From: a virus
Taxonomy: Duplodnaviria; Caudoviricetes
Length of the DNA stretch: 36,878 nucleotides
Direction: 5' to 3' (one strand)
Virus record (IMG/VR): IMGVR_UViG_3300023197_000202
Location: 1-36,878 of that record
A program made the position numbers and the translations under genes. Shown here in pieces: positions 13,879-30,777 of this stretch. Each line of letters opens with the position of its first letter. Position 1 is the first letter of the stretch. The notes beneath the pieces are model-generated. The model was given only the letters and a program-made list of their open reading frames with translations. It did not search any database and was not told where the DNA came from.

Positions 13879-14586
13879 ATGTCGCAACAGAGCGCGAAAG
13901 AAGACATCGTCCGCGAACTTCGGAATACCGATGAACCAGCCCTATCGGCCAAGCACTTGGCAGAGAATCTGGACTACTCAGTCCGAACGATCAACAATCA
14001 CGTTTCAGAGCTTGTAGACAAGGATCGGATCGAAGCGACACAAATCGGGAATGCAACAGCCTACTACATCCCAGTTGACGAACATACGTCACACAGGAAC
14101 CCTGAGCACACGTGTACTCGATGTGGACGAACAACGGCTCTACATGATTTCGCAAAGGTAGAGTTCGACACCTATTTTGATTCTGGAAACATCGAAGATT
14201 CCACGTCTGACTTCGACATTCTCTGCCGATTCTGTTATTCAGATATTATTTCTTGGGTTAACAACGACACGGCCACAATGGGGGAATACCGGCGTGTCCA
14301 TAACTGGTTAATTCCTGAGAATCAACTCAACGAGGTACGGAATGATCCAGACATCGTTACCGCTCCGAGTCTGGATCCCCTGGACGGTGATACCCGAGAG
14401 CTCTTCGAGATCATATCCGATGTCGCAGGAGACGAAGGGGCTCCAAAACCAGACGTAGAGTCGAGGGCCGAAGAGGCTGGCTTCCGGCCCGCAGAAACTG
14501 AAAGACTTCTGAAAGAACTACTCAGGAAAGGATACCTGTTCGAAACACTTGAAGGCCTTACGATGAACTACATCCCTGCAAAGTAA
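13879..14586 (+). CDS. HTH - Zn finger - winged helix protein (inserted accessory regulator)
   Basis: N-terminal LSAKHLAENLDYSVRTINNHV HTH, CTRC...CRFC, C-terminal wHTH-like ETERLLKELLRKGYLFE; opposite strand with an AT-rich upstream region. Confidence 0.8.
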   Translation: MSQQSAKEDIVRELRNTDEPALSAKHLAENLDYSVRTINNHVSELVDKDRIEATQIGNATAYYIPVDEHTSHRNPEHTCTRCGRTTALHDFAKVEFDTYFDSGNIEDSTSDFDILCRFCYSDIISWVNNDTATMGEYRRVHNWLIPENQLNEVRNDPDIVTAPSLDPLDGDTRELFEIISDVAGDEGAPKPDVESRAEEAGFRPAETERLLKELLRKGYLFETLEGLTMNYIPAK

Positions 14587-14593
14587 CGCAGGT

Positions 14594-17500
14594 TCACTGG
14601 TTGTCGGAGTCCGACAGCTCCGAGGTATTTTTCGACTTTGTGAGACTCGAGCCGTTGGATCCGACCAAGTCAGAGTTGTTCCTGGACGCATCGAAGGTTC
14701 GGATCTGACGGATGAATGTGAACGAGGTACGCATCTCCGTCGTCGCACCATACTTGCCCGCGAGTGCTTTGGAGAGTACACCAGCGTCGGCCTCGAACTC
14801 TGTTGCGGTACTCGCAACCTTCGTTGCACTCACACTCGACGCAGTGTACACGGGAGTGGAGGAGAAAGACGCGGAGGCGATCGTCTTTACCGACGTCGGC
14901 CTTGCAGTTGTCGTGCCCGACGGAGTCTGCATCGTCGTTGAGGCTGAGACAGGCGTCGAGGTAGCATCGGTACCCTTTCGGGCACTACCTGTCTTCGTCG
15001 CCGACGAGGCTGTAACTGTGGTGGCCACAGAGACAACCAGTCCGTCTCCAACGGTAGTCAACGGTGTGGTGCTGCCGGGCACCTTCGTCGACGAAACGTC
15101 TGCTGTACCGACACTGGACGGCGTCTGTGTCGACGCCGAAGCTGCCACCTTCGTGGCTGACGGAGTAGATGAGCTCGTTCCCGACGGCGTCTGCATTGTC
15201 GTTGACGCCGTCGCCTTCGTCGCGTCAGCGAAGACACCGTTTATTGCTGTGAACAGTGTCGCTGTCGAGACAACCTTTGTTGCGCTCGGAGACGCACTGG
15301 TTGCGCCGACAGGCGAGAACATCGTCGACGAACCTGCCACCTTCGTTCCAGACGGCGTCGCGATTCCAGTTCCCGATCCTGTCGACATCGTCGCAGTCCC
15401 ACCAGTCTTCGAAGCGCTCGCGCCCGACGAGCTCAATGCGTCAGGCGTGAACGGTGAGGCGGACGCTGACATCTTCGTCGACGCAGGCGTCGCGAGTCCC
15501 TCCCCAGACGCAGCAGACATTGTGGACGAGCCAGGCGTCTTCTCGACTGTGATCGACGCAGTACTGGTCGGAGTCCACGCACTCTGGTTCGCTGCGTACT
15601 CTGGGTACATTCCGAGATCGTAACTATACCCAGATGTGTCCAGAGTCTCGATGAAGGAACCGTCGCTCATATCGTACTGGTTGAGTACGACATCAGTTCC
15701 ATTGTAGAAGGTGGTGTAGAGATTTCCGTGGACTGTGACGTCAATCTCCTGTGGATTCGAATTGATCTCATTACTCCAATCAACAGTGTTATTATCAAGA
15801 TCGTACCGCTCAAGATAGTAGTCTGAATTACTGTCGAGGTATCCGACGTAGAGATTTGCATTGTCATCGACAACGCCAGCGTACACTGTTTCGTAATCGA
15901 CAGAATTCGTCGTAACAGTCGATCCATCACTGACATTCAGTTTCTTTATATCAGGGCCAATTCCACCAGTAATGTTAGCGTAAATATATCCAGCACCGTC
16001 GGTGAAGACTAAAGCATCACCACCGTAGTCGGTGGAGAAGTCACGTACCCAAGATTCACTCCCACCGCCAGCTCTGTCGTATCTGGTGACAGTACTGCCA
16101 CGTCCTCCGATGTAGATGTTCTCACTGGAATCGATAGCAGATGAAACGATGTCAGTCGAAACATTGCCAGTCCATACCTCATCACCTGTATCCTTGTTCA
16201 GTCTGAACAGTCTGTCTCCAGAATTGTCTACGAGGTAGAGCGTGTCCTCTCCAACCTTGAGAGAGACGGTGTCGAAAGTGAGAGAACTGTTACTCCACAA
16301 TTGAGATCCCGTCTCATCGTAGGCGTATACCTCGTTAGAACCAGAGTCCCCCACGTAGGCGATTCTATCAGAGTCAGTCTCAACAACATCTACAGATAGG
16401 CTCGTGACACTCCACTGCTTCGTCCCATCACTGTTGTACTTGTAGAGGCCGTTAACATTTCCAGCGTAGCTGAAGTCCGACTCAGATGGGAGTCCCGACG
16501 AAATCGTCGACGGCGTCGGGAAAGACGTGTCAGCTGTTACCTTCGACGACGACGCAGCCACGCCTCGGGATGCAGACGGCGTCTGCATCGTAGCGCTCGA
16601 CGTCATCTTCGTTGCAACAACAGGAACGGCAGCCCTCACTGTCTGCATCGAAGCACTGCCTCCGTACTTGGATGCAGAGGCAGCCGATGAGCTCGTTCCA
16701 GACGACGTTGCCATCGTCGTGGCCCCACTCACCTTCGTCGCGATCGGGGCCGACGTGGTAGCGCCTGAGACGGTATTGAGTCCGGATGTACTGGCAACCT
16801 TCGTGGCCGACGCAGCTGCAGCGATTGCACCCGAAGCTGTCTTTTGCGTGGAAGAGGAACCAACTTTCGTGGCCGTGGCCGACTTCTTTACAGTCGTGCT
16901 CCAGGAGTCGGGGAAGGACTCGTACTTTGGGTGGCCTGTGACACTCTCATTAAGTCCGTCGAATAAGAACGTATCACCTGAAGTCCAATCCTTTGACTGA
17001 TTCTCTGTGTCATATTTGAACAGCTCGTTGTTTCCTCGATCACCAACGTAGAGCTTCGACTCCGGAGTCAGGCTTAGATGACGTGCCTCACCAGCTATAT
17101 TTTTGTTTGAGAGAATTGTCCCGTCACTACTGTCGATGGTGACGATCTCCCCACCATCCCCACCGACGTGGATTATACCGTCATCTCGGACTACAATGTC
17201 GGAATAGAACTTCGAGACGTCGTGATCGCCTGCATGTCGCTCCCAGAGTCGGGTACCTCCAACGTCAGCATCATCATAAGCGATAATGTAGCCCGTGTGA
17301 TCTGACGTAATGATGGTTCCGTTGTACCAGGCAACACCCCAGATAGTGCCCTCACCTGCTGACTTCTGCCACTGAGTCGTACCAGTGGAATCAATCTTGG
17401 TGATACGCTGGTTAGACTCCTCAGAGACGTAGATATTATCGCTATCGTCAACTGTTATACCGAACGAATTTCCGGGATCGAAGTTCTCCCAAACAAGATC

Positions 17501-17812
17501 CCCAGTCGACACGTCGATCTTCTGGAGACGATTATAGTTGTCTCCTGCCCCGTAAACGTAGTTTCCATCTGAGGAGAAGACAAAGTCCTTGTGTTCAGCA
17601 TTGACATATGTGTCGTAGACGACATTGAAATTTGGGTCGAGCTTGACAGTGTTCTGATTGCCCGCACCAAAATAGATATTTCCGTCTACGTCAGTAGTAA
17701 CTGAACTAATAGAGCTGCCATAATCGTATCTGTCGAGTTCAGATCCATCACTGGGATCGATTTTGACGACAGCGTTCTCTTTTCCTGTATAAAGGTGGTG
17801 TGTAGTAGCCAT
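14594..17812 (-). CDS. Fibre/adhesin with two PQQ/WD-like beta-propellers and Ser/Thr/Ala repeat stalks
   Basis: Repeated D.DGNIYVG...KID..G...W blades in two blocks, separated and followed by 20-22 aa ATK repeats. Confidence 0.8.
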   Translation of the reverse strand: MATTHHLYTGKENAVVKIDPSDGSELDRYDYGSSISSVTTDVDGNIYFGAGNQNTVKLDPNFNVVYDTYVNAEHKDFVFSSDGNYVYGAGDNYNRLQKIDVSTGDLVWENFDPGNSFGITVDDSDNIYVSEESNQRITKIDSTGTTQWQKSAGEGTIWGVAWYNGTIITSDHTGYIIAYDDADVGGTRLWERHAGDHDVSKFYSDIVVRDDGIIHVGGDGGEIVTIDSSDGTILSNKNIAGEARHLSLTPESKLYVGDRGNNELFKYDTENQSKDWTSGDTFLFDGLNESVTGHPKYESFPDSWSTTVKKSATATKVGSSSTQKTASGAIAAAASATKVASTSGLNTVSGATTSAPIATKVSGATTMATSSGTSSSAASASKYGGSASMQTVRAAVPVVATKMTSSATMQTPSASRGVAASSSKVTADTSFPTPSTISSGLPSESDFSYAGNVNGLYKYNSDGTKQWSVTSLSVDVVETDSDRIAYVGDSGSNEVYAYDETGSQLWSNSSLTFDTVSLKVGEDTLYLVDNSGDRLFRLNKDTGDEVWTGNVSTDIVSSAIDSSENIYIGGRGSTVTRYDRAGGGSESWVRDFSTDYGGDALVFTDGAGYIYANITGGIGPDIKKLNVSDGSTVTTNSVDYETVYAGVVDDNANLYVGYLDSNSDYYLERYDLDNNTVDWSNEINSNPQEIDVTVHGNLYTTFYNGTDVVLNQYDMSDGSFIETLDTSGYSYDLGMYPEYAANQSAWTPTSTASITVEKTPGSSTMSAASGEGLATPASTKMSASASPFTPDALSSSGASASKTGGTATMSTGSGTGIATPSGTKVAGSSTMFSPVGATSASPSATKVVSTATLFTAINGVFADATKATASTTMQTPSGTSSSTPSATKVAASASTQTPSSVGTADVSSTKVPGSTTPLTTVGDGLVVSVATTVTASSATKTGSARKGTDATSTPVSASTTMQTPSGTTTARPTSVKTIASASFSSTPVYTASSVSATKVASTATEFEADAGVLSKALAGKYGATTEMRTSFTFIRQIRTFDASRNNSDLVGSNGSSLTKSKNTSELSDSDNQ

Positions 17813-22101: not shown

Positions 22102-22530
22102 TTATTCGTCGTCGACAGCGTCTTCGGCTTCGGACAGCTGCCCCATCCAGTCAGACTGGGCCTCTGCCTTCGTCATCTCGGGGCCGTCTTCGAGGAGCCC
22201 GAGCTTTTCGAGCTCACGAGTCATGTTGGAGGCGAGCCGGTTGTAGGCGTCACGAGCTCGTTCGCTCGTATCGTCGAGGATGTCGTCCTCGAGCGTGTGC
22301 TCGTTATAGCGCCAGCGTTTGACGGTATCAACCGCTACGTTGCGAATCGCCTCACGTTCGTAGGCTCCAACTTCACCGTCGAACTTTGCGAGCAGATCCG
22401 TCGAGACTTCGACGACAAGCTCCTTCTCCGAGTCTGAGAGACGATTGTAGAGCTTCTCTCGATCGGAGAAAAGCGAGTGCTTCTCTCCATTACCGTTGCC
22501 AGGCTGGCCTCCCTTGGTTCTATCAGACAT
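22102..22530 (-). CDS. terS: Terminase small subunit (putative)
   Basis: GGQPGN.N.EKH.LF N-terminal motif; helical; immediately upstream of TerL. Confidence 0.8.
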   Translation of the reverse strand: MSDRTKGGQPGNGNGEKHSLFSDREKLYNRLSDSEKELVVEVSTDLLAKFDGEVGAYEREAIRNVAVDTVKRWRYNEHTLEDDILDDTSERARDAYNRLASNMTRELEKLGLLEDGPEMTKAEAQSDWMGQLSEAEDAVDDE

Positions 22531-22558
22531 AAATAGTATCAGTTGCGAAAGATGTCAG

Positions 22559-22651
22559 TCAGTTCTCTGATCTATGCGCCTTCTCGCGATGGTATTCTAA
22601 CTGCTTCTCGTTACCACAGAGACGGTTGCATTCAGAGCACTGAGCAAACAT
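22559..22651 (-). CDS. 30-aa C2H2 zinc-finger microprotein
   Basis: MFAQCSECNRLCGNEKQLEYHREKAHRSEN fits CxxC-x12-H-x4-H; the longer ORF call only runs through the promoter and a low-complexity tract. Confidence 0.6.
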   Translation of the reverse strand: MFAQCSECNRLCGNEKQLEYHREKAHRSEN

Positions 22652-22664
22652 TGGTTGCGACAAA

Positions 22665-22714
22665 ATAGATAGATAGAGAGATAGAAAGATGGAGAGAGAA
22701 GATAGAGAGAGGAG
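22665..22714. repeat. Purine-rich (GATA/GA) low-complexity tract
   Basis: atagatagatagagagatagaaagatggagagagaagatagagagaggag; pyrimidine-rich on the late transcript. Confidence 0.8.
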
Positions 22715-22732
22715 CGGGGCTGCATGCTCTAC

Positions 22733-22774
22733 TACGTGCTCCATCGACGTTACCCTTCTCAGGCATTGAGATAG
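22733..22774 (-). promoter_or_regulatory. Putative viral late promoter element, copy 1
   Basis: TACGTGCTC-n5-ACGT-nACnC-TTCTC-n6-TGAGATAG shared with 13667-13708; upstream of the terminase operon. Confidence 0.7.
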
Positions 22775-22857
22775 CACATCGTGTAGCTACGGAATTCGCG
22801 TACCCAATCAGATAATTTGCAGAACTTATATCGGTATAGTTTCTGTTTGAGTACTCA

Positions 22858-23682
22858 ATGGCACAAGAAGGATATCAAGATAGAGCATATATCTATGCAA
22901 GTTCATCTTCATTAGATGATCTCAAATCATGGGCCTCTAAAATGCGAACAAAGTCGGAAAAGAAAGGGATAAATTACCAAGGCCCTCACCCCCTTGAGCC
23001 AAAAGAGGTTGGAGGAATTACATTCTACACAAGAGCATTTGAGGTAACTCTCACTGACAAGTCAAGAGAGATCTTGGATACTGAACTTCCCGATGAAGTT
23101 TATATGGAAATGAGTCTGGGCAAGAATATATCCCCTGACGTTGAAGATATAATTCCAGATGAGAAATTACACGAGGCGGGTGAAGTAGATGAAAATTCGG
23201 CGGATTCTCAGGAAGATGAAGAGGCCAGCGAAGTTGAAACACTCTCACAAGAGTCAGAGATTGAAGCCTCTGAATCTGGTGAATCACAGACTTCGACAGA
23301 ATTGTCAGGTTCTGAGCAAGAGCCAAATCTAACAGAGCTACGTGAACAGGCTAATGAGGCTGCCGTCGAAGAAGTCCCTGAATCAGCGACAACATCATCA
23401 CAGACGAAACAGCAGTACAGTCGTGCCTCTGAAGTTCGTGATTACGTGATGGCCAGAGCAGATGGAGAATGTGAGGGTTGCGAAGAGCCCGCCCCATTCA
23501 CAAGCAAGACTGGAGAGCCCTATCTTCACGCACACCACGTCCATGAGCTCAGTAACGGAGGCTCAGATACACCTGATACTGTCATCGCTCTCTGTCCAAA
23601 TTGTCACTATCGAGTCCACCACGGAGAAGATGGAGAGGAGTACAATCAAGAACTGCGTGAAACACTCAACGACATTGAGTAA
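22858..23682 (+). CDS. uS10-like domain - acidic linker - HNH endonuclease fusion
   Basis: C-terminal CEGC...LHAHHV...GG.D...ALCPNCH HNH; N-terminal about 87 aa follow the uS10 pattern (KKGI..GPHPLEPK..R.FEV..LPDEV.ME); TTATAT box at 22826-22831. Confidence 0.85.
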   Translation: MAQEGYQDRAYIYASSSSLDDLKSWASKMRTKSEKKGINYQGPHPLEPKEVGGITFYTRAFEVTLTDKSREILDTELPDEVYMEMSLGKNISPDVEDIIPDEKLHEAGEVDENSADSQEDEEASEVETLSQESEIEASESGESQTSTELSGSEQEPNLTELREQANEAAVEEVPESATTSSQTKQQYSRASEVRDYVMARADGECEGCEEPAPFTSKTGEPYLHAHHVHELSNGGSDTPDTVIALCPNCHYRVHHGEDGEEYNQELRETLNDIE

Positions 23683-23693
23683 TAACTCTGGAG

Positions 23694-24311
23694 TTAATTA
23701 GGGGATATTTCTATGAGTGAAGGCTGCTCCTGCGGTTTTGACTCTCCAGTGGCTTTCCAACGATTGTATCCATCGTACGCTCTTGCGACTCGATCATCTT
23801 GATATCCACTATCCGAGAGCGCTTCTTCTGGTATCTTTTCGGGCTTGCGTCCGTCGGCGAACCATCGTCCAGTTCTCTTCCCATTCCCACTGTATAGCTT
23901 GAGTTGAATATCTATAGGCTGGAGGAAACTTGACGACGGCCCGTAAGGCTCGTACAGCCCTCTCTCCGTCAATAAAAATATCTTATGTCCATCTCGACTG
24001 GGAGCATCACTCGCCAAATCCGAAGCAGGATCAGTTTCACACTCTACGCCTACAATCGTACCGTCGTCCATCACGACTGCGACATCAATGCTCCACCTCT
24101 CGTATGATAGCTCCTCTATGATGTCTTCCGCTTCAAATCCTTGTGATAGCAAAAAGTAGACTGCTGTGTTCTTCATCCGAACATGGCCTGATTCTTCTGA
24201 ACCCCACTCTCCATCCAAGTGAGGCCAATCCAGTTCGGGCTTATTTCCGGACTTCACTATCAGAATAGACGCCTGTTCACGACATGAATTCTTCGCACGT
24301 ATATTCTTCAA
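23694..24311 (-). CDS. PD-(D/E)XK-like nuclease-fold protein
   Basis: H..MK..A...L...GF...EE....IDVAV...VGVECET pattern. Confidence 0.6.
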   Translation of the reverse strand: MKNIRAKNSCREQASILIVKSGNKPELDWPHLDGEWGSEESGHVRMKNTAVYFLLSQGFEAEDIIEELSYERWSIDVAVVMDDGTIVGVECETDPASDLASDAPSRDGHKIFLLTERGLYEPYGPSSSFLQPIDIQLKLYSGNGKRTGRWFADGRKPEKIPEEALSDSGYQDDRVARAYDGYNRWKATGESKPQEQPSLIEISPN

Positions 24312-24634
24312 TGGTGAGCCTTCGTCCGCTTTGTCATAGGATGGAGTCCCGCCATGTTCTCGTCACAGTCCTCACAGAGTGTGAGACGATTAACGAGTTC
24401 GTCTGGTTCAGACTCGTCGACGACATGTGTAACAAGTTCGTCGTCGCTACCACAGACGAGGCAGGCTCTGTCGTCACGCTCGAGGACGTCGGCCCGAAAG
24501 CTGTCTTCCTCGTTTTCACCCTCGGAGTCGTCGGCATCTACGTCGTCGCAAAAGCGTTGATGCGCACCCAGTCCTGCGCTCTTGAACTCCTCGCCACAGT
24601 ATTCGCACTCAACCATGTCAGCGTCTGCTGTCAT
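24308..24634 (-). CDS. Zn finger plus degenerate HNH-like protein
   Basis: CEYC...H..FC finger, then VLERDD.ACLVC...N.LTLCEDC with a weakened His motif. Confidence 0.7.
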   Translation of the reverse strand: MTADADMVECEYCGEEFKSAGLGAHQRFCDDVDADDSEGENEEDSFRADVLERDDRACLVCGSDDELVTHVVDESEPDELVNRLTLCEDCDENMAGLHPMTKRTKAHH

Positions 24635-24951: not shown

Positions 24952-25165
24952 TGGTATATAATATGGTATCCAGTCCTGTTACACTTCACCGGGACTGTGA
25001 TACTCTATAACCAATTTCAACTGTGAAACGGCCAATATCTGGAGGTTGATAACAGTAGTACTGCCGTCTGTATCGATGCTTGTTATCGTAGCTGTCGCAA
25101 GGTAGCTTAATCCCTCTAATTAAGAGTCTGACAGGGCTCGCGTAAAAAAGATTATTGCAACCGAC

Positions 25166-25411
25166 ATGATAATCAAGTATATGACGAATGAGGAGCGTAT
25201 TGAGGCTCGTATAGAATCTGAACTTAAATCAAAGCGATATAAACCCCATGAGAATGGAGAGCAAACTGTTAAAATCAAAATAGCAAGTGCCGGACTCACT
25301 GTAGACGAGGTTTTAGATCATAAGTGGGTGAAAGACGCTTATTCTGCTACTGACGGCGAATATACTGTCCATGTGAAGGCAGAATCGGATATCCATATCT
25401 CGGTAGTGTAA
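25166..25411 (+). CDS. Hypothetical protein (start may be 25181)
   Basis: AT-rich island; stop overlaps the next start (TAATG). Confidence 0.6.
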   Translation: MIIKYMTNEERIEARIESELKSKRYKPHENGEQTVKIKIASAGLTVDEVLDHKWVKDAYSATDGEYTVHVKAESDIHISVV

Positions 25412-25854
25412 TGAGTCAAGTTGTGGCCTTTTTAAAGAAAATATATCCAAATTTTTCCGAGGCCAGACAGTCAAGGCGCAAAATCAGGCAGCAGTATAGA
25501 AAGAATCAAAAGGCACTGGATCGGGATGACGATGTTGAGCTGGTAATGACAACAAATGATAATACTGGATATTTAACAAGCCGTTCTGAAGAAACCGCTA
25601 TTGAAGCCGATCACCTCATCCAGAAGCACGGATCCGAATCAGATCCACTTTCTTATAGAGTGACAGATGATAAGAATGCTGTAAAGACGGCATTCAGTAG
25701 TGTTATCACTGAAATCAGTAGGAGAAACTGGCTCAGTTATGCTATAGAGATTTTATTCATTGTTTTCGTAATTCTGTGCTTTAGCCTCTCAATCATACTT
25801 GGAGCATATAGTATTGAAAGTTTGATAACAGGTATAGCCGGATCAATAGCTTAG
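25411..25854 (+). CDS. Hypothetical membrane-anchored protein
   Basis: Basic N-terminus, long C-terminal hydrophobic segment; coupled to the upstream ORF. Confidence 0.65.
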   Translation: MSQVVAFLKKIYPNFSEARQSRRKIRQQYRKNQKALDRDDDVELVMTTNDNTGYLTSRSEETAIEADHLIQKHGSESDPLSYRVTDDKNAVKTAFSSVITEISRRNWLSYAIEILFIVFVILCFSLSIILGAYSIESLITGIAGSIA

Positions 25855-26008
25855 TTTTAGTGCTCTACACTTTAGATTTAATTTGAACTTTATTTACACT
25901 TATTGGTGATTATTAGAATACAATCGACTTTTCAACCACCAGGTGTCGCCCCTATTGGTTCAGAGAATGAAAATATACTTTTGAGACGACAATTTGTAGT
26001 GTGTTGCA

Positions 26009-26770
26009 TTATTCTAAGTCCTCCCATACATCCTCATAGGTAGAGTACTCCCTGTCTGGATGTGTCCATGAGTCCGGAGGTTCCCAGTCAATTTGTCCAT
26101 CTTCCTCAGTATACTCCCATTGGAAATCTTCTTCCGCTTGGTGTATGAAATGCTCAGCTTCTGCTTCTATGTCCATCGGTTCTGCACCCATTGATGCAAG
26201 TTGTCGATCAGCTAATTCTCCAATGAGGAAATTAGACGATGTAACGGCAAACCGAATTAGTGCTCGCGGATACTCCAGTTCCAACCAAGAATTGTGTCCA
26301 CACTCATTACGCACCTCTCGGACGAAGTGGAACAACTTTCGCTCATCATTAGAGATAATATCATTAGAATAGGCTGAATTGATTGCCGAGGCAAAGTTCG
26401 TAGATGGGTCGACATCCAATATATCTAAAAAATATGACTCAAAGAAGGAACACGCTCTCATGACGCAGGCATGTTCCTCATTATTCTCCCACAGTCTGTA
26501 GAATTCTCTCTGTTCAATGAGTAGCATCGGTATCTTTTCATCAAACAGATCCGCCCCTACTCGCTCCCAGTTTTTATATATGAATCTTAGCGCTTCATAC
26601 CGATGATCCTCTTCTGCAATCACCTTTGCAGTTGGTATGGCCTGATCTGGCGATATAACACCGTGCGAGCCGGGGGAAACGTCAGCTGCCCGTTCGTAAT
26701 CTTCCTCAGTTACCTCCTCTTCATAAACTGCCTGTATAGCCCTTATAAAAATTCCAATATTTCCACTCAT
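26009..26770 (-). CDS. HEPN-domain protein (putative RNase)
   Basis: ACSFFESY helix and Rx4H motif RNECGH in a helical context; AT-rich. Confidence 0.65.
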   Translation of the reverse strand: MSGNIGIFIRAIQAVYEEEVTEEDYERAADVSPGSHGVISPDQAIPTAKVIAEEDHRYEALRFIYKNWERVGADLFDEKIPMLLIEQREFYRLWENNEEHACVMRACSFFESYFLDILDVDPSTNFASAINSAYSNDIISNDERKLFHFVREVRNECGHNSWLELEYPRALIRFAVTSSNFLIGELADRQLASMGAEPMDIEAEAEHFIHQAEEDFQWEYTEEDGQIDWEPPDSWTHPDREYSTYEDVWEDLE

Positions 26771-27426
26771 AGTTACTATCCACTATTCCAAATTGAGTGT
26801 TAAAAATTTGACGGGGCTTGGAATCCCTCTGTTGAACCTAATAAAATCAAGAATCATTCTGGGAATAGACGCGACTGATTCACATATTGGCCTCAGTGTT
26901 TGAGGAGTATCTCCTTACTCTGAGAGCGATCGTGATTTTCCGTAGATCGTTCGCAGCAGACAGAGCAACTATCAGAGCCGACGATGGCCACCTTCGAGGC
27001 CGACACAGAGGCGAGCAGCAGCGTCTTAGAGGACGTCGTCAACAGTTTCGAGGAGACATCAGGATAACGTTGGAGGCGACACAGAGGCAGCTCTCGGATC
27101 GGACATGCGCAGTGTCTGATGGCACGTCAGAAAGGGACATAGCATCAGAGTCTCTTGGTTGTCTGATACACACAGCGGTGGACACCGTTGTTGTATTGTT
27201 GACAGGGAAGCAATACTTCGGGGACGAGGGCGAGATTCGAGTTCAACGAAGGTGAGAATAATTAAACAAGCGTAAGAAAATCGGGCAGATTCTGCAACTG
27301 TGGAGATCGAGGACAGCCGGTTCTGGCCTGATGACTGCGAGCTCGGCTGCCGTATGTTCAGACAAGAACGGGTTCTGTTGTCGCTCTGTAGGGTACTGGG
27401 GCTTCTTCTTGTACAACTACTGCCCC

Positions 27427-27650
27427 TTCGTATTCAACGATAGACGTCTTCTACTACCACAGTACTACCATCTAACACACAACAACGGTGCCAACTGCGG
27501 TTGCTGTACTGCTGTAGTGTACTTACAAAAAACATCCTTTTCGTATTCAATGTTTAGACGTCTTAGACTACGTATTACTACCTCTATACCACAACAACGG
27601 TGTTAACTGCTGTAGTGTACTAACTAACGGCAGTCCAGTTCGTATCCTAA
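27427..27650. repeat. Imperfect direct repeat, period about 113 bp (two units plus a partial third)
   Basis: Blocks TTCGTATTCAA, TAGACGTCTT, TACTACC, CACAACAACGGTG, AACTGC, CTGCTGTAGTGTACT recur in order from 27427 and 27540. Confidence 0.85.
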
Positions 27651-28493
27651 GTATACTGCTGTTATATAGAACGTAGTGGCCCCCCCCTCTTGTCCAACCC
27701 CTCTCGACTCAAGCCTGAACCGATTGAGAGCCAAATGTCGCCCTCTAATCGGGCCTGAATAGGCCGGAGTCCGATTTGGAGGATGCGCTACAGCCTCCAG
27801 ATCGATTCTAAGGAAATCTGTGGCCTCTCACGAGCGAACAGGGGAGGGGGCTAAGGGTTGGTTCGTTTGCCCCTCAGAGAACCGCGCGTGCGTCAGCTCA
27901 GAGCCATATTGCTTCTGAGGGGAATGAGGGCGAAAATAGGGTGCGACTGAGATGTGGTTTTCTTACGAATGTTCAAAAAGTCTCGATTCGACGGTTAGCC
28001 ACAGGGTGAGAAGCCACATTCAAGACATGTGATACATCCCCCACCGGGCTGCATGTGTTCTGAACGACACTCCGGACATTCACTATAGAATTCTGACATA
28101 GTAGATCAGTACAACGAGTGAAACGTTCGCCTGGCACCGATCCACGTCGTTTACAATCGAGAGAGGTGGCCCTCGAAGATAGTGAGAGCGTGTCCCATAC
28201 AACGTCTTACTCCGTCGCGACGATCGCAAACGTGTGTGGATGATGCCGAGACGTCGTCTCGGATATGGATGTAGATGCTTCATCACCCTGTATCTTCGGA
28301 CTCTTCAAGATTCGATCTATCACAATGCTTACTGGAAGAACCAGCAAGTATTGCCAAACTGTGGTGTCACGTACACAGTTCTAAATCAGATTCGGGCGCT
28401 GTCTTGTGGTTTGACGGTAGCCAAGTGTGGGTACAGACTTACTGATAGCATGGGCTATCTGTGACGGTGCTACCAGTTCGGGGACAATCAGGG

Positions 28494-28684
28494 CCTGGTA
28501 GTTCTGGACGGAGAACAACCACGTCGCCCTCGAGCTCGGCTCTCCCTCTCTACACTCATTACCGGTGCCAACCGCCGAGCGTATTTCCCGACGATCGTGC
28601 TGGCTTCGTCGACGATCAGGAGGACGTCGTCTGTCTCTCGAGACAGTCGTACCTGGTAGTCCTGGACGGAGGACTACCACGTCG
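28494..28684. repeat. Two 33-bp hairpin repeats 158 bp apart
   Basis: 28494-28526 and 28652-28684 are 30/33 identical; each has a 10-bp stem and a GGACGG loop. Confidence 0.85.
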
Positions 28685-29283
28685 GGCCCGAACCCGCACT
28701 GTCGGAGTAGACGGAGCGAGCAGCACCTGGACGAGAGTCTGGTTCGCTTTCGATGAATGGCTGGCGTCGACTCTGACGCTGTCAGGATCGCTTGTGACGC
28801 CTCTTATTCAGATTGTCAGGGATTTGGGACTTGAGAGACTGTTCACTGAGCCATACCCTATACTGCCCGATTTCAGAATCATTTATAAGGCCACTGAGCC
28901 CCTGTCTGGCCACACGATTTCGGGGCACCCCTTTATGTACCCTATGGGGGGTATTTTTCGACTGGATTGTCTCGAAGCCCATGTCTTGCAGGACGTGTGC
29001 TTCGAACCACTGGAGGGAGCTACAGGTACATCGTTTGATTGGACTCAGTATCCTGTATAGGGGGGACAGGGGTGCGTCTTCATAATCAGCCCGGATATTC
29101 GATGTACCTACCGATACATGGGTGACATCTCAAATCTGTGTTGAATCGGGTATACTGAGACATTAGTAGAAATCTACAGGTGCGTTTGTTGGATGTGAAC
29201 CTTGGGGTTAGACGTGCAACAATACACATCCAAGTTGAGAGAAGTAGAACAGTTCACAGTGTACATAGTGTATTTATGTAACC

Positions 29284-29976
29284 ATGCAGGAATTATTTTG
29301 CATGGAAACAGGGGAAAGTGAAACTGAGGATCCACCGCCTGAACGAGGACACGACGACAGTCCTGTGGAGCGATCGGAAGCAGATATTCGAGAGGAACTC
29401 TACGAACAGTTTGATGTAAGTAAGACTGAGGAGTTTGGTATCGAACGCATTATCCCTATTCTCGGGAGATCAATGGAAACTGAATCAAAATATGATATAG
29501 ACACACGTTTGAAAATATTGGCAGAGATCACGCTATTCCGGACGTATCTACGGGAGCCGAAGTTCAAGAATTTTGCCTGGACAGCAGTTCTGATTGGTAC
29601 CTATGACTTCCTCCATCCACTTACTCCAGGAATCTATCCGATTGTATTCATCGCACTTGCGACGATTAATGGATTTACGTCCTCCCTTCGCTCTCCTGTG
29701 ATGATGGTTGCCGAACTTGAGGGGTTGGAAGATGAAGATGGAGTGCCAGCAGATTATCGCGCGAAGGCCTCCTCAAGTGTCAACACAAATGTGACGCTCG
29801 TACTTTTTCTTATGGCTGTCTCCGTTCAAATACTGGTGACGAGCTCGATAGTACAGGGTGAACTGATTGCTCAGAACGTTGCTGGCGGGATGTGGCATCC
29901 AGCGATTTCTGCGACTGGGTTGGTATTATCCAGGGTGTTATATTACCGAATTCGTGGAGACAGCGATGAAGGTTGA
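29284..29976 (+). CDS. Multi-pass membrane protein of unknown function
   Basis: Acidic N-terminus and about four hydrophobic segments. Confidence 0.75.
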   Translation: MQELFCMETGESETEDPPPERGHDDSPVERSEADIREELYEQFDVSKTEEFGIERIIPILGRSMETESKYDIDTRLKILAEITLFRTYLREPKFKNFAWTAVLIGTYDFLHPLTPGIYPIVFIALATINGFTSSLRSPVMMVAELEGLEDEDGVPADYRAKASSSVNTNVTLVLFLMAVSVQILVTSSIVQGELIAQNVAGGMWHPAISATGLVLSRVLYYRIRGDSDEG

Positions 29977-30294
29977 TTGTTTCTGGTAGCCTGTTTGTGT
30001 TCCAGGAAGAGACTCTGTTTCAATAAACCAGTACTGTGATATGAGATTACGAATGTTCGTCGTCGTGATCAACTGGGAGCGCCTTGTCGATCAAGAGTCT
30101 GAGTCGGCCACGACGCAGCGCCAATGCCAGGAGGAACCCGAGTCCGAAGTCTTTGAATTCAATTGGCGAGAAAGAGATAGGGAGGGATTCGAACATATGC
30201 AAGCGTACGACACAGAGCGCTGCGAAACTTCTGACTGGACGAGATATGTATTAATTCGGGAAAGATACAAATGATAGTAACCTGATGAGTAAAT

Positions 30295-30573
30295 ATGATT
30301 AGCCGGAAATCGGAAATGAGCCCCGGAAACACTTATGTCGTGACTGTAGATCGAATCAGCGGAAGTGGTAATGGAATAGTCTCTCTTTCGGAGGGACACA
30401 TAAACTTGGGCTCAATGGATAAAAGACGTGTAGGGGATAAGGTTAGAATTAGATATTTTCGTGATGGAGACATAGAAATAGCTGATAACGTAGTTTCTCC
30501 CGGTACAGACTATGACTCTCTAAAAGAGGATCCAACAGAGAATAGAAATGATCTGCTCAACGGGCACCAGTAG
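30295..30573 (+). CDS. TRAM-like small RNA-binding domain protein
   Basis: PG.TY.VTVDRIS.SGNGIV...VGDKVRI pattern. Confidence 0.6.
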   Translation: MISRKSEMSPGNTYVVTVDRISGSGNGIVSLSEGHINLGSMDKRRVGDKVRIRYFRDGDIEIADNVVSPGTDYDSLKEDPTENRNDLLNGHQ

Positions 30574-30777
30574 TCAGAATTTGTACAGCTCGTGTAGCAC
30601 ACGACTCTTTGATAATTAGCGTGATACGTCCTCCCCTTAAATCATTCGTGGCGACTACAGAATATACGAGTCAGGAGGAGACGAACGAGCCTCCGTCTCA
30701 ATTCACGTAGCCAATACTTAAACCTGTAACCCATTTGAGTCCTGACAGAGCGAGGATTCAGGCGGGAACGTCGCAAC

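Follow-up and report, generated by a model that had tools for sequence, protein, structure and literature searches.

The gene at 22858..23682 encodes a protein (P0001) that joins a ribosomal protein uS10 domain, stripped of its extended rRNA-penetrating loop, to an HNH nuclease of the McrA type. It is probably a stand-alone, provirus-borne defence nuclease, a reading to which a probability of roughly 0.8 can be attached. A more tentative proposal, falling somewhat short of even odds, is that the loop-less uS10 domain equips this nuclease with a decoy or sensor for a protein of the invading virus. The protein is not a ribosomal protein, and its gene departs from canonical uS10 genes: a 274-aa fusion in a provirus insertion versus about 102 aa behind EF-1alpha (tef1a).

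The window, meaning the whole stretch of 36,878 nucleotides analysed here (IMG/VR record IMGVR_UViG_3300023197_000202), has the gene set of a tailed virus on its minus strand, comprising tail, capsid, portal, terminase, primase-polymerase, Cdc6 and integrase. We infer that the source element is a provirus because it has an integrase and because related elements lie within chromosomes. No tRNA was found in the window, and the named relatives of the uS10-HNH gene are all haloarchaeal. The features of the locus are as follows.

22102..22530, minus strand: terminase small subunit (terS), phrog_9231 at E 2.7e-17
22540..24310, no strand: low-GC insertion of ~1.8 kb with approximate borders, flanked by terS and the provirus's own HNH-like gene
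22820..22831, plus strand: BRE/TATA-like element CAGAAC TTATAT, at a distance suited to a leaderless transcript
22858..23682, plus strand: uS10-HNH gene (P0001), an ORF of 274 aa
22879..23121, plus strand: loop-less uS10 domain, residues about 8-88, from profile and predicted structure
23005..23019, plus strand: short hairpin turn EVGGI, residues 50-54, replacing uS10 residues about 47-66
23140..23169, plus strand: conserved VEDIIPxxEL-like extension, residues 95-104, behind the uS10 domain
23170..23328, plus strand: variable acidic Ser/Thr-rich linker, residues 105-157
23329..23679, plus strand: McrA-type helix and zinc-binding HNH domain, residues 158-274
23694..24311, minus strand: convergent co-inserted 205-aa ORF with a PD-(D/E)xK-like stretch, the motif recognised by eye
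24308..24634, minus strand: the provirus's own degenerate HNH-like gene, whose homologue lies directly before terS in 4/5 relatives

A loop-less uS10 domain on a McrA-type nuclease

The original prediction read the N-terminal domain as uS10 with its loop replaced by a short turn, and both parts of that reading are borne out. A single-sequence comparison with Pfam PF00338 (Ribosomal_S10) is weak (E 0.021 and 15.5 bits, where the cut-off is 21.2), and in a phmmer search of the PDB six of the eight matches are uS10, the best at E 0.0043 with the match split in two stretches. A family profile built from 17 N-terminal domains of uS10-HNH relatives reaches archaeal uS10 at E 6.6e-9, and the best 60 of its 118 rows are all uS10/S20. 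Profile positions 6-51 and 54-86 align to uS10 1-46 and 67-100, so that about 20 uS10 residues (47-66) are reduced to about two. This gap is common to all 21 loop-less rows, and the extended loop is absent in every one.

The predicted structure agrees. The AlphaFold model of the domain (pLDDT 78.8) has a beta-alpha-beta-beta-alpha-beta order with a short hairpin, and Foldseek places it closest to archaeal uS10 (best E 6.8e-8; TM 0.72-0.80 by query). The first 16 rows of a VIA search are ribosomal chains at Z 9.5-12.0, including 8hkx_S10P at Z 10.1 (rmsd 2.0, 81 residues aligned), with designed ferredoxins behind them at Z 9.5 or less. Thus uS10 ranks above generic ferredoxin-like folds in both searches, and the domain is more than an instance of such a fold. 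The top row of an ESM Atlas search is also uS10 (TM 0.59); a search of the same atlas by features gave no usable match. The third row is a bacterial cluster of 59 members, most of them Verrucomicrobiota; it has both NusB and Ribosomal_S10 families and looks like a natural fusion of the two.

The nearest structural precedent is the bacterial NusE/S10 delta-loop of 3d3b, 3d3c, 2kvq and 3r2c, which we take to be engineered constructs. Its truncation is nearly the same (rmsd 1.8-3.4 Å), and 3d3c matches the family profile in one stretch. In Foldseek the domain model superposes on the short NusE chains of 2kvq and 3d3b at 1.8-2.2 Å, with 1.8 Å over 83 columns for the 80-residue chain of 2kvq. The present domain differs in being natural, archaeal and fused to a nuclease; to our knowledge archaea lack NusB.

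The C-terminal part matches PF01844 HNH at residues 205-255 (E 5.5e-9) and has the zinc/metal ligand pattern CxxC ... HH ... CxxCHxxxH. C205, C208, C246 and C249, together with H226, H227, H250 and H254, are invariant in 24 rows; the His residues presumably have the catalytic and ligand roles assigned to them in HNH enzymes. The HNH had been described as intact, which holds for the Cys/His pattern and not for the HNH Asn, replaced here by Thr241. Thr occupies this position in 108 of 115 clade members, Ser in 6 and Asn in 1. Bacterial SRA-HNH relatives also vary there, and activity is therefore still possible with Thr241. The closest solved HNH is that of EcoKMcrA (6ghc, E 7.4e-19), and PADLOC labels this part mREase_IV (E 3.3e-19); both PADLOC and PHROGs cover the HNH part of the protein only.

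The linker between the two domains ranges from 53 to 115 aa across members, and its acidity is modest in many of them (−0.07 to −0.31 per residue). Autoinhibition by a DNA-mimicking linker was considered and dropped, since acidity varies between members. Conservation of domain, linker and HNH was compared in six pairs: the uS10 domain is more conserved than the linker in 6/6 and less conserved than the HNH in 4/6. That it is better conserved than the linker indicates a domain under constraint.

A recent insertion beside the terminase

The gene was predicted to stand alone on the opposite strand with its own TATA box. Its ORF is indeed on the plus strand with its neighbours on the other, and a TATA-like TTATAT lies at −32..−27 from its ATG. 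A spacing rule governs the TATA element ahead of leaderless archaeal transcripts, and the element was placed by it. The shuffle chance, for a pattern picked after viewing, is 0.039 for TTWWWW alone and 0.004 with the upstream AA. A sigma-70 promoter scan was set aside as inapplicable to archaea. A GA-rich simple repeat (22660-22712) lies between terS and this promoter, and a related contig is without 8 bases at 22679 within it. One contig spans the uS10-HNH gene without differences, and it may be the source itself rather than an independent copy.

The gene has a GC content of 0.457 against 0.55-0.59 for the virion genes, and a GC3 of 0.371 against 0.63-0.76. None of five related elements carries it at this site. 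Its low GC and this absence mark it as part of a recent insertion of ~1.8 kb that also brought the 205-aa ORF. The latter overlaps the stop of 24308-24634 and has no homologue at this place in any of the five relatives; it gave no family match and no tblastn match in 366 loci, and it was not found beside other family members.

The position, about 330 bp from terS, would suit a plain viral packaging or homing HNH acting next to the terminase, but that reading is very improbable. A gp74-like packaging HNH would be co-oriented with terS and conserved before it; this one lies on the opposite strand, has low GC and is missing from all five relatives, four of which keep a separate homologue of 24308-24634 directly before terS. 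An insertion absent from every relative is not the packaging HNH. It is, moreover, of the McrA type, with homologues in chromosomal and plasmid defence regions. The gene at 24308-24634 itself combines a zinc finger with a degenerate HNH-like part whose catalytic His pattern looks lost.

In four of the five related proviruses (L363-L366) a type IIG R-M gene lies just upstream, at about this place before terS, one of them cut by a contig end. This suggests that the region upstream of terS is a hot spot for defence cargo. Elsewhere in the window, 25000-30600 is a further low-GC stretch (0.39-0.53) with ORFs that lack family matches, and 26009-26770 gives weak HEPN-like Pfam scores (E 0.035-0.12). 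A 1072-aa beta-propeller protein (14594-17812, minus strand) sits inside the head module, as it also does in the relative L362, and an opposite-strand HTH gene (13879-14586, plus strand) adjoins it.

The wider neighbourhood of the HNH clade bears out the expected defence-island context. Within about 6.5 kb, 17 of 21 clade loci have a PADLOC match at E<=1e-10, compared with 3 of 20 control stretches of 13 kb, where the matches are generic ATPases and a helicase. These figures rest on 99 neighbour ORFs of the 21 loci (98 of 157 picked, plus one more) and on 99 of 195 control ORFs, the longest per stretch. The neighbouring systems include type I and IIG R-M, BREX, DISARM, ShosTA, Tmt, GmrSD-like, Ssp and CARF components. 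Fusions with uS10 make up just two of these 21 loci, one with CARF nearby (L009) and one with no defence match (L106). At L009:1-8212 (Halohasta salina) the neighbours of the uS10-HNH gene are a transposase-like ORF, a 902-aa PLD-like protein, a GIY-YIG-like ORF and a CARF protein. Of these labels only CARF is search-based; the 902-aa protein also occurs near the HNH in L004.

The insertion, the McrA-type HNH and the defence neighbourhood together support the predicted provirus-borne defence role over packaging or homing. The shut-off nuclease offered as its alternative fits poorly with homologues in chromosomal defence islands. As in type IV enzymes, the context is that of defence islands and mobile elements, and no cognate methyltransferase accompanies the gene (no match among the window ORFs scanned). 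Where those enzymes have a known modified-base reader (SRA, EVE, YTH, wH or McrA-N), however, the N-terminal domain here is uS10. The protein is thus a variant of the reader-HNH defence nucleases that falls outside type IV by the reader criterion.

The family, its interchangeable modules and the source of the uS10 domain

A full-length search matched 245 proteins, 120 of which were listed. Haloarchaea hold at least 21 loop-less uS10-HNH fusions, counted as aligned rows, one of them (P0121) frameshifted before the HNH. Additional loop-less members are a 280-aa Haloarcula orthologue (P0122) and the Halohasta salina protein of L009, and a cultured Haloarcula carries the close orthologue WP_206508219.1. 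The form is rare in isolates, at 1 of 401 class genomes, and that genome is the centre of the search. In three further proteins the same HNH is joined to a uS10 domain that keeps its loop and passes the Pfam cut-off (PF00338 E 3.7e-9 to 4.5e-7); one of these represents a 15-member cluster, and the intact-loop form is absent from the 401 order-level genomes.

The domain appears tied to this nuclease. A phmmer search of 1.84 billion representatives with the uS10 domain gave three matches, all HNH fusions, and a profile search of longer proteins gave eight, namely seven HNH fusions and one frameshifted member; the domain was seen on no other effector among the longer proteins searched. A word-index search with residues 1-95 returned only the uS10-HNH protein itself. 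Scans of viral contigs with single domains found nothing, and 72,556 plasmids and 50,697 phages held no full-length match.

Judged from sequence relationships, the HNH belongs to a haloarchaeal branch of the SRA-HNH type IV restriction enzymes. At E<=1e-25 the full-length profile matches 49 of 401 genomes; the weaker matches and 22 viral loci are mostly SRA-HNH by eye, with weak SAD_SRA matches. The close haloarchaeal members form a subclade in which the linker is long and the N-terminus varies. In the 120 listed proteins, a census biased towards uS10 by the query, OB/TRAM-like modules account for 73 (11 of these also have a TFS-like ribbon) and loop-less uS10 for 22, two of which are annotated short; three carry an intact S10b, one only a ribbon, one an Lsm domain and 20 something else. 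HEAT repeats, HTH/wH and SRA also fill the N-terminal slot of the clade. The mosaic proteins at L005:9059-10375, L267:9710-11818 and L117:678-2879 have repeated OB/TRAM-like modules, up to about six, and also hold TFS-like ribbons, wH and SRA-like parts.

Several of these modules resemble host genes. The best outside matches of the zinc ribbons are host TFS-type genes (43-52% identity), the ribbon being named TFS-like from its sequence pattern. The Lsm domain on the HNH is 35-44% identical to the host's own Lsm gene and occurs in two different proteins:

L107:958-1662, plus strand: Lsm-HNH fusion of the same HNH clade
L264:9115-10410, minus strand: second, different Lsm-HNH (carried by G079), whose HNH is followed by a long C-terminal extension

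The OB module matched only HNH genes of the clade in five genomes and is therefore not a recent host capture. The N-terminal labels are scattered on an HNH tree of weak support, too weak for module shuffling to be taken as proven.

Two host paralogues are candidate sources of the uS10 domain. Two uS10 genes, S10a and S10b, are present in 25 of 26 haloarchaeal genomes. They correspond to HVO_0360 and HVO_1392 (rps10b), and the available text of PMC8305020 lists the role of S10b as an open issue. The three intact-loop domains are 53-63% identical to S10b and 21-23% to S10a, and they nest inside S10b in the trees; on this sequence evidence they were taken from rps10b.

The loop-less domains are more distant. 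P0001 is about 30-33% identical to any host uS10, and 18 of 21 loop-less domains prefer the S10b profile (34.5 versus 16.1 bits for P0001), which is the more diverse of the two. They form a fast-evolving group of their own (support 85/92-94) that the maximum-likelihood tree joins to S10b at 99/96, although long branches meet there. Neither a join of the loop-less domains with S10a (AU p 0.06) nor a single capture of uS10 (AU p 0.11) is rejected in the AU-tested tree, which left out the loop-less rows P0007, P0014, P0015, P0038 and P0121. Two captures give the best tree without being proven, and the loop-less domain seems nearer to S10b than to canonical uS10. Independent origins from S10a for P0011, P0020 and P0031, which prefer the S10a profile, are unsupported by the trees. 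This link to S10b, the McrA/SRA-HNH ancestry and the interchangeable N-terminal modules are what the original prediction missed.

What the uS10 domain may do

The decoy or sensor reading can be set out as a chain of conditional steps. Engineered bacterial S10 delta-loop stays out of ribosomes, and by analogy the loss of the loop would keep the archaeal domain out of them. The bait domain would then be bound by a viral factor whose usual target is host uS10 or S10b, and this binding would pair the HNH domains; McrA-type HNHs work as dimers according to the available text of PMC12707154. Cutting of DNA would restrict the invader or kill the cell, and the lysogen would be protected.

In plants, NLR integrated decoys place varied copies of pathogen-targeted host proteins on one effector scaffold. 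The present clade similarly has varied host-derived domains on one scaffold, namely uS10 in both loop-less and intact forms, Lsm and the TFS-like ribbon, which lends the decoy idea of the original prediction circumstantial support while the rest of it stays a proposal. TFS ribbons and HEAT repeats are protein-binding modules, and linkers of 53-115 aa are better suited to catching a partner than to cleavage at a set distance. Mimicry is weakened by the low identity of P0001 to host uS10 together with the replacement of Arg by aromatic residues at exposed sheet positions relative to it. It also counts against a decoy that most modules of the clade (OB/TRAM-like, wH, SRA) are nucleic-acid-binding folds.

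Those same modules, with Lsm, speak for a type IV-like reader-nuclease, a possible, if less probable, explanation. Here the loop-less uS10 would be an RRM-like reader in the slot that SRA holds in the parent SRA-HNH architecture, tethering the HNH to foreign DNA; candidate ligands are modified DNA, ssDNA or RNA at an R-loop. The exposed sheet would suit such a role, positions 11, 13 and 82 being mostly aromatic or Arg/His and strand 3 Arg-rich, and the net charge of the loop-less domains is near neutral (−8 to +3) compared with a mean of −7.6 for canonical S10a. However, uS10 is not known to read modified bases, HEAT repeats and TFS ribbons, which occupy this slot too, are not readers, and the conserved 95-104 extension may cover the aromatic patch. 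Enzymes of the reader-HNH kind (TagI, VcaM4I, McrA) are described in the available text of PMC12707154.

Docking onto a host machine, in which the uS10 domain would bind the Spt5 KOW, much as S10 does NusG in bacteria, and carry the HNH to transcribing RNA polymerase while TFS ribbons and Lsm act as parallel hooks onto polymerase and RNA, is unlikely, and less likely than either the decoy or the reader. All three readings have a defence nuclease in common. The 1.8 Å superposition noted above is on the NusE chain of a NusE:NusG-CTD complex, and the equivalent of M88 is hydrophobic or aromatic in 21/21 rows, where S10b mostly has T/V/A. The V84-equivalent of the NusG/KOW pocket, in contrast, is variable among the 21 rows and is Ser in this protein (numbering from the available text of PMC8116511, mapped here onto E. 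coli). That text treats an archaeal uS10-KOW contact as proposed or feasible only. A constitutive hook, moreover, gives no discrimination of self from non-self, and the intact-loop members derive from S10b, which is without the canonical pocket residues.

It is more doubtful still that uS10 serves only for oligomerisation, stability or expression, or is just a passenger of a recombinogenic HNH gene, with target choice made in the HNH part or in a partner. A slot that accepts many unrelated domains, module labels scattered on the weakly supported HNH tree and the frameshift of P0121 before its HNH would all fit a passenger. Yet the loop deletion is precise and shared, and the fold, the GP and P-D motifs, W25 (17/21) and the 95-104 extension (P100 in 17/21 rows, D/E/N at 97 in 21/21) are kept across 20-40% identity.

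EcoKMcrA (6ghc), ScoMcrA (5zmm) and the SRA-HNH/EVE-HNH enzymes TagI and VcaM4I have an N-terminal targeting slot as it does, and EcoKMcrA has a C-terminal zinc-bound HNH with the same His/Cys pattern. McrA is likewise a single gene on a prophage-like element, e14, in the available text of PMC12707154. In the uS10-HNH protein, however, a ribosomal-protein domain, and no known modified-base reader, fills the slot, and the haloarchaeal subclade is set apart from McrA and SRA-HNH by its variable linker, a HAHH motif and the change of the HNH Asn to Thr. With S10a and S10b the domain has fold and motifs in common, but it lacks the loop, is only about 30% identical, is fused to a nuclease and occurs sporadically where they are near-universal.

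Viral ribosomal proteins offer a further comparison. The available text of PMC6375957 names eS30, bS21, bL9, bL12 and HPF, thought to tune translation, with bL12 and bL9 domains inside larger viral polypeptides as uS10 is here; neither uS10 nor a nuclease fusion is among those it names. The available text of PMC13434031 has nothing on uS10-nuclease fusions. In the literature covered, largely outside subscription journals and bioRxiv supplements, no account was found of an S10-HNH fusion in archaea or viruses, of haloarchaeal HNH/McrA defence, or of an integrated decoy with an anti-phage HNH.

In this protein a loop-less uS10 occurs naturally away from the ribosome, joined to a restriction-type nuclease, and the gene offers a single-gene handle on the function of rps10b and on a non-ribosomal partner of archaeal uS10 such as Spt5. 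If the N-terminal parts are readers, a ribosomal protein has been turned into a restriction specificity domain. A broader and speculative possibility is that the clade is a haloarchaeal family of integrated-decoy immune proteins, in which one McrA-type HNH chassis has repeatedly captured parts of the host gene-expression machinery, uS10 twice, Lsm and TFS ribbons, as baits; the likeness to plant NLRs is a proposed analogy, and the archaeal scaffold differs in being a single-chain HNH nuclease. Were this so, it would be categorically new for archaea and a prokaryotic counterpart of the plant integrated decoys. Each bait would name a host target, and the baits together would list the host proteins attacked by archaeal viruses, with the loop-less uS10 pointing to a non-ribosomal, virus-targeted role of uS10 or S10b in archaea.
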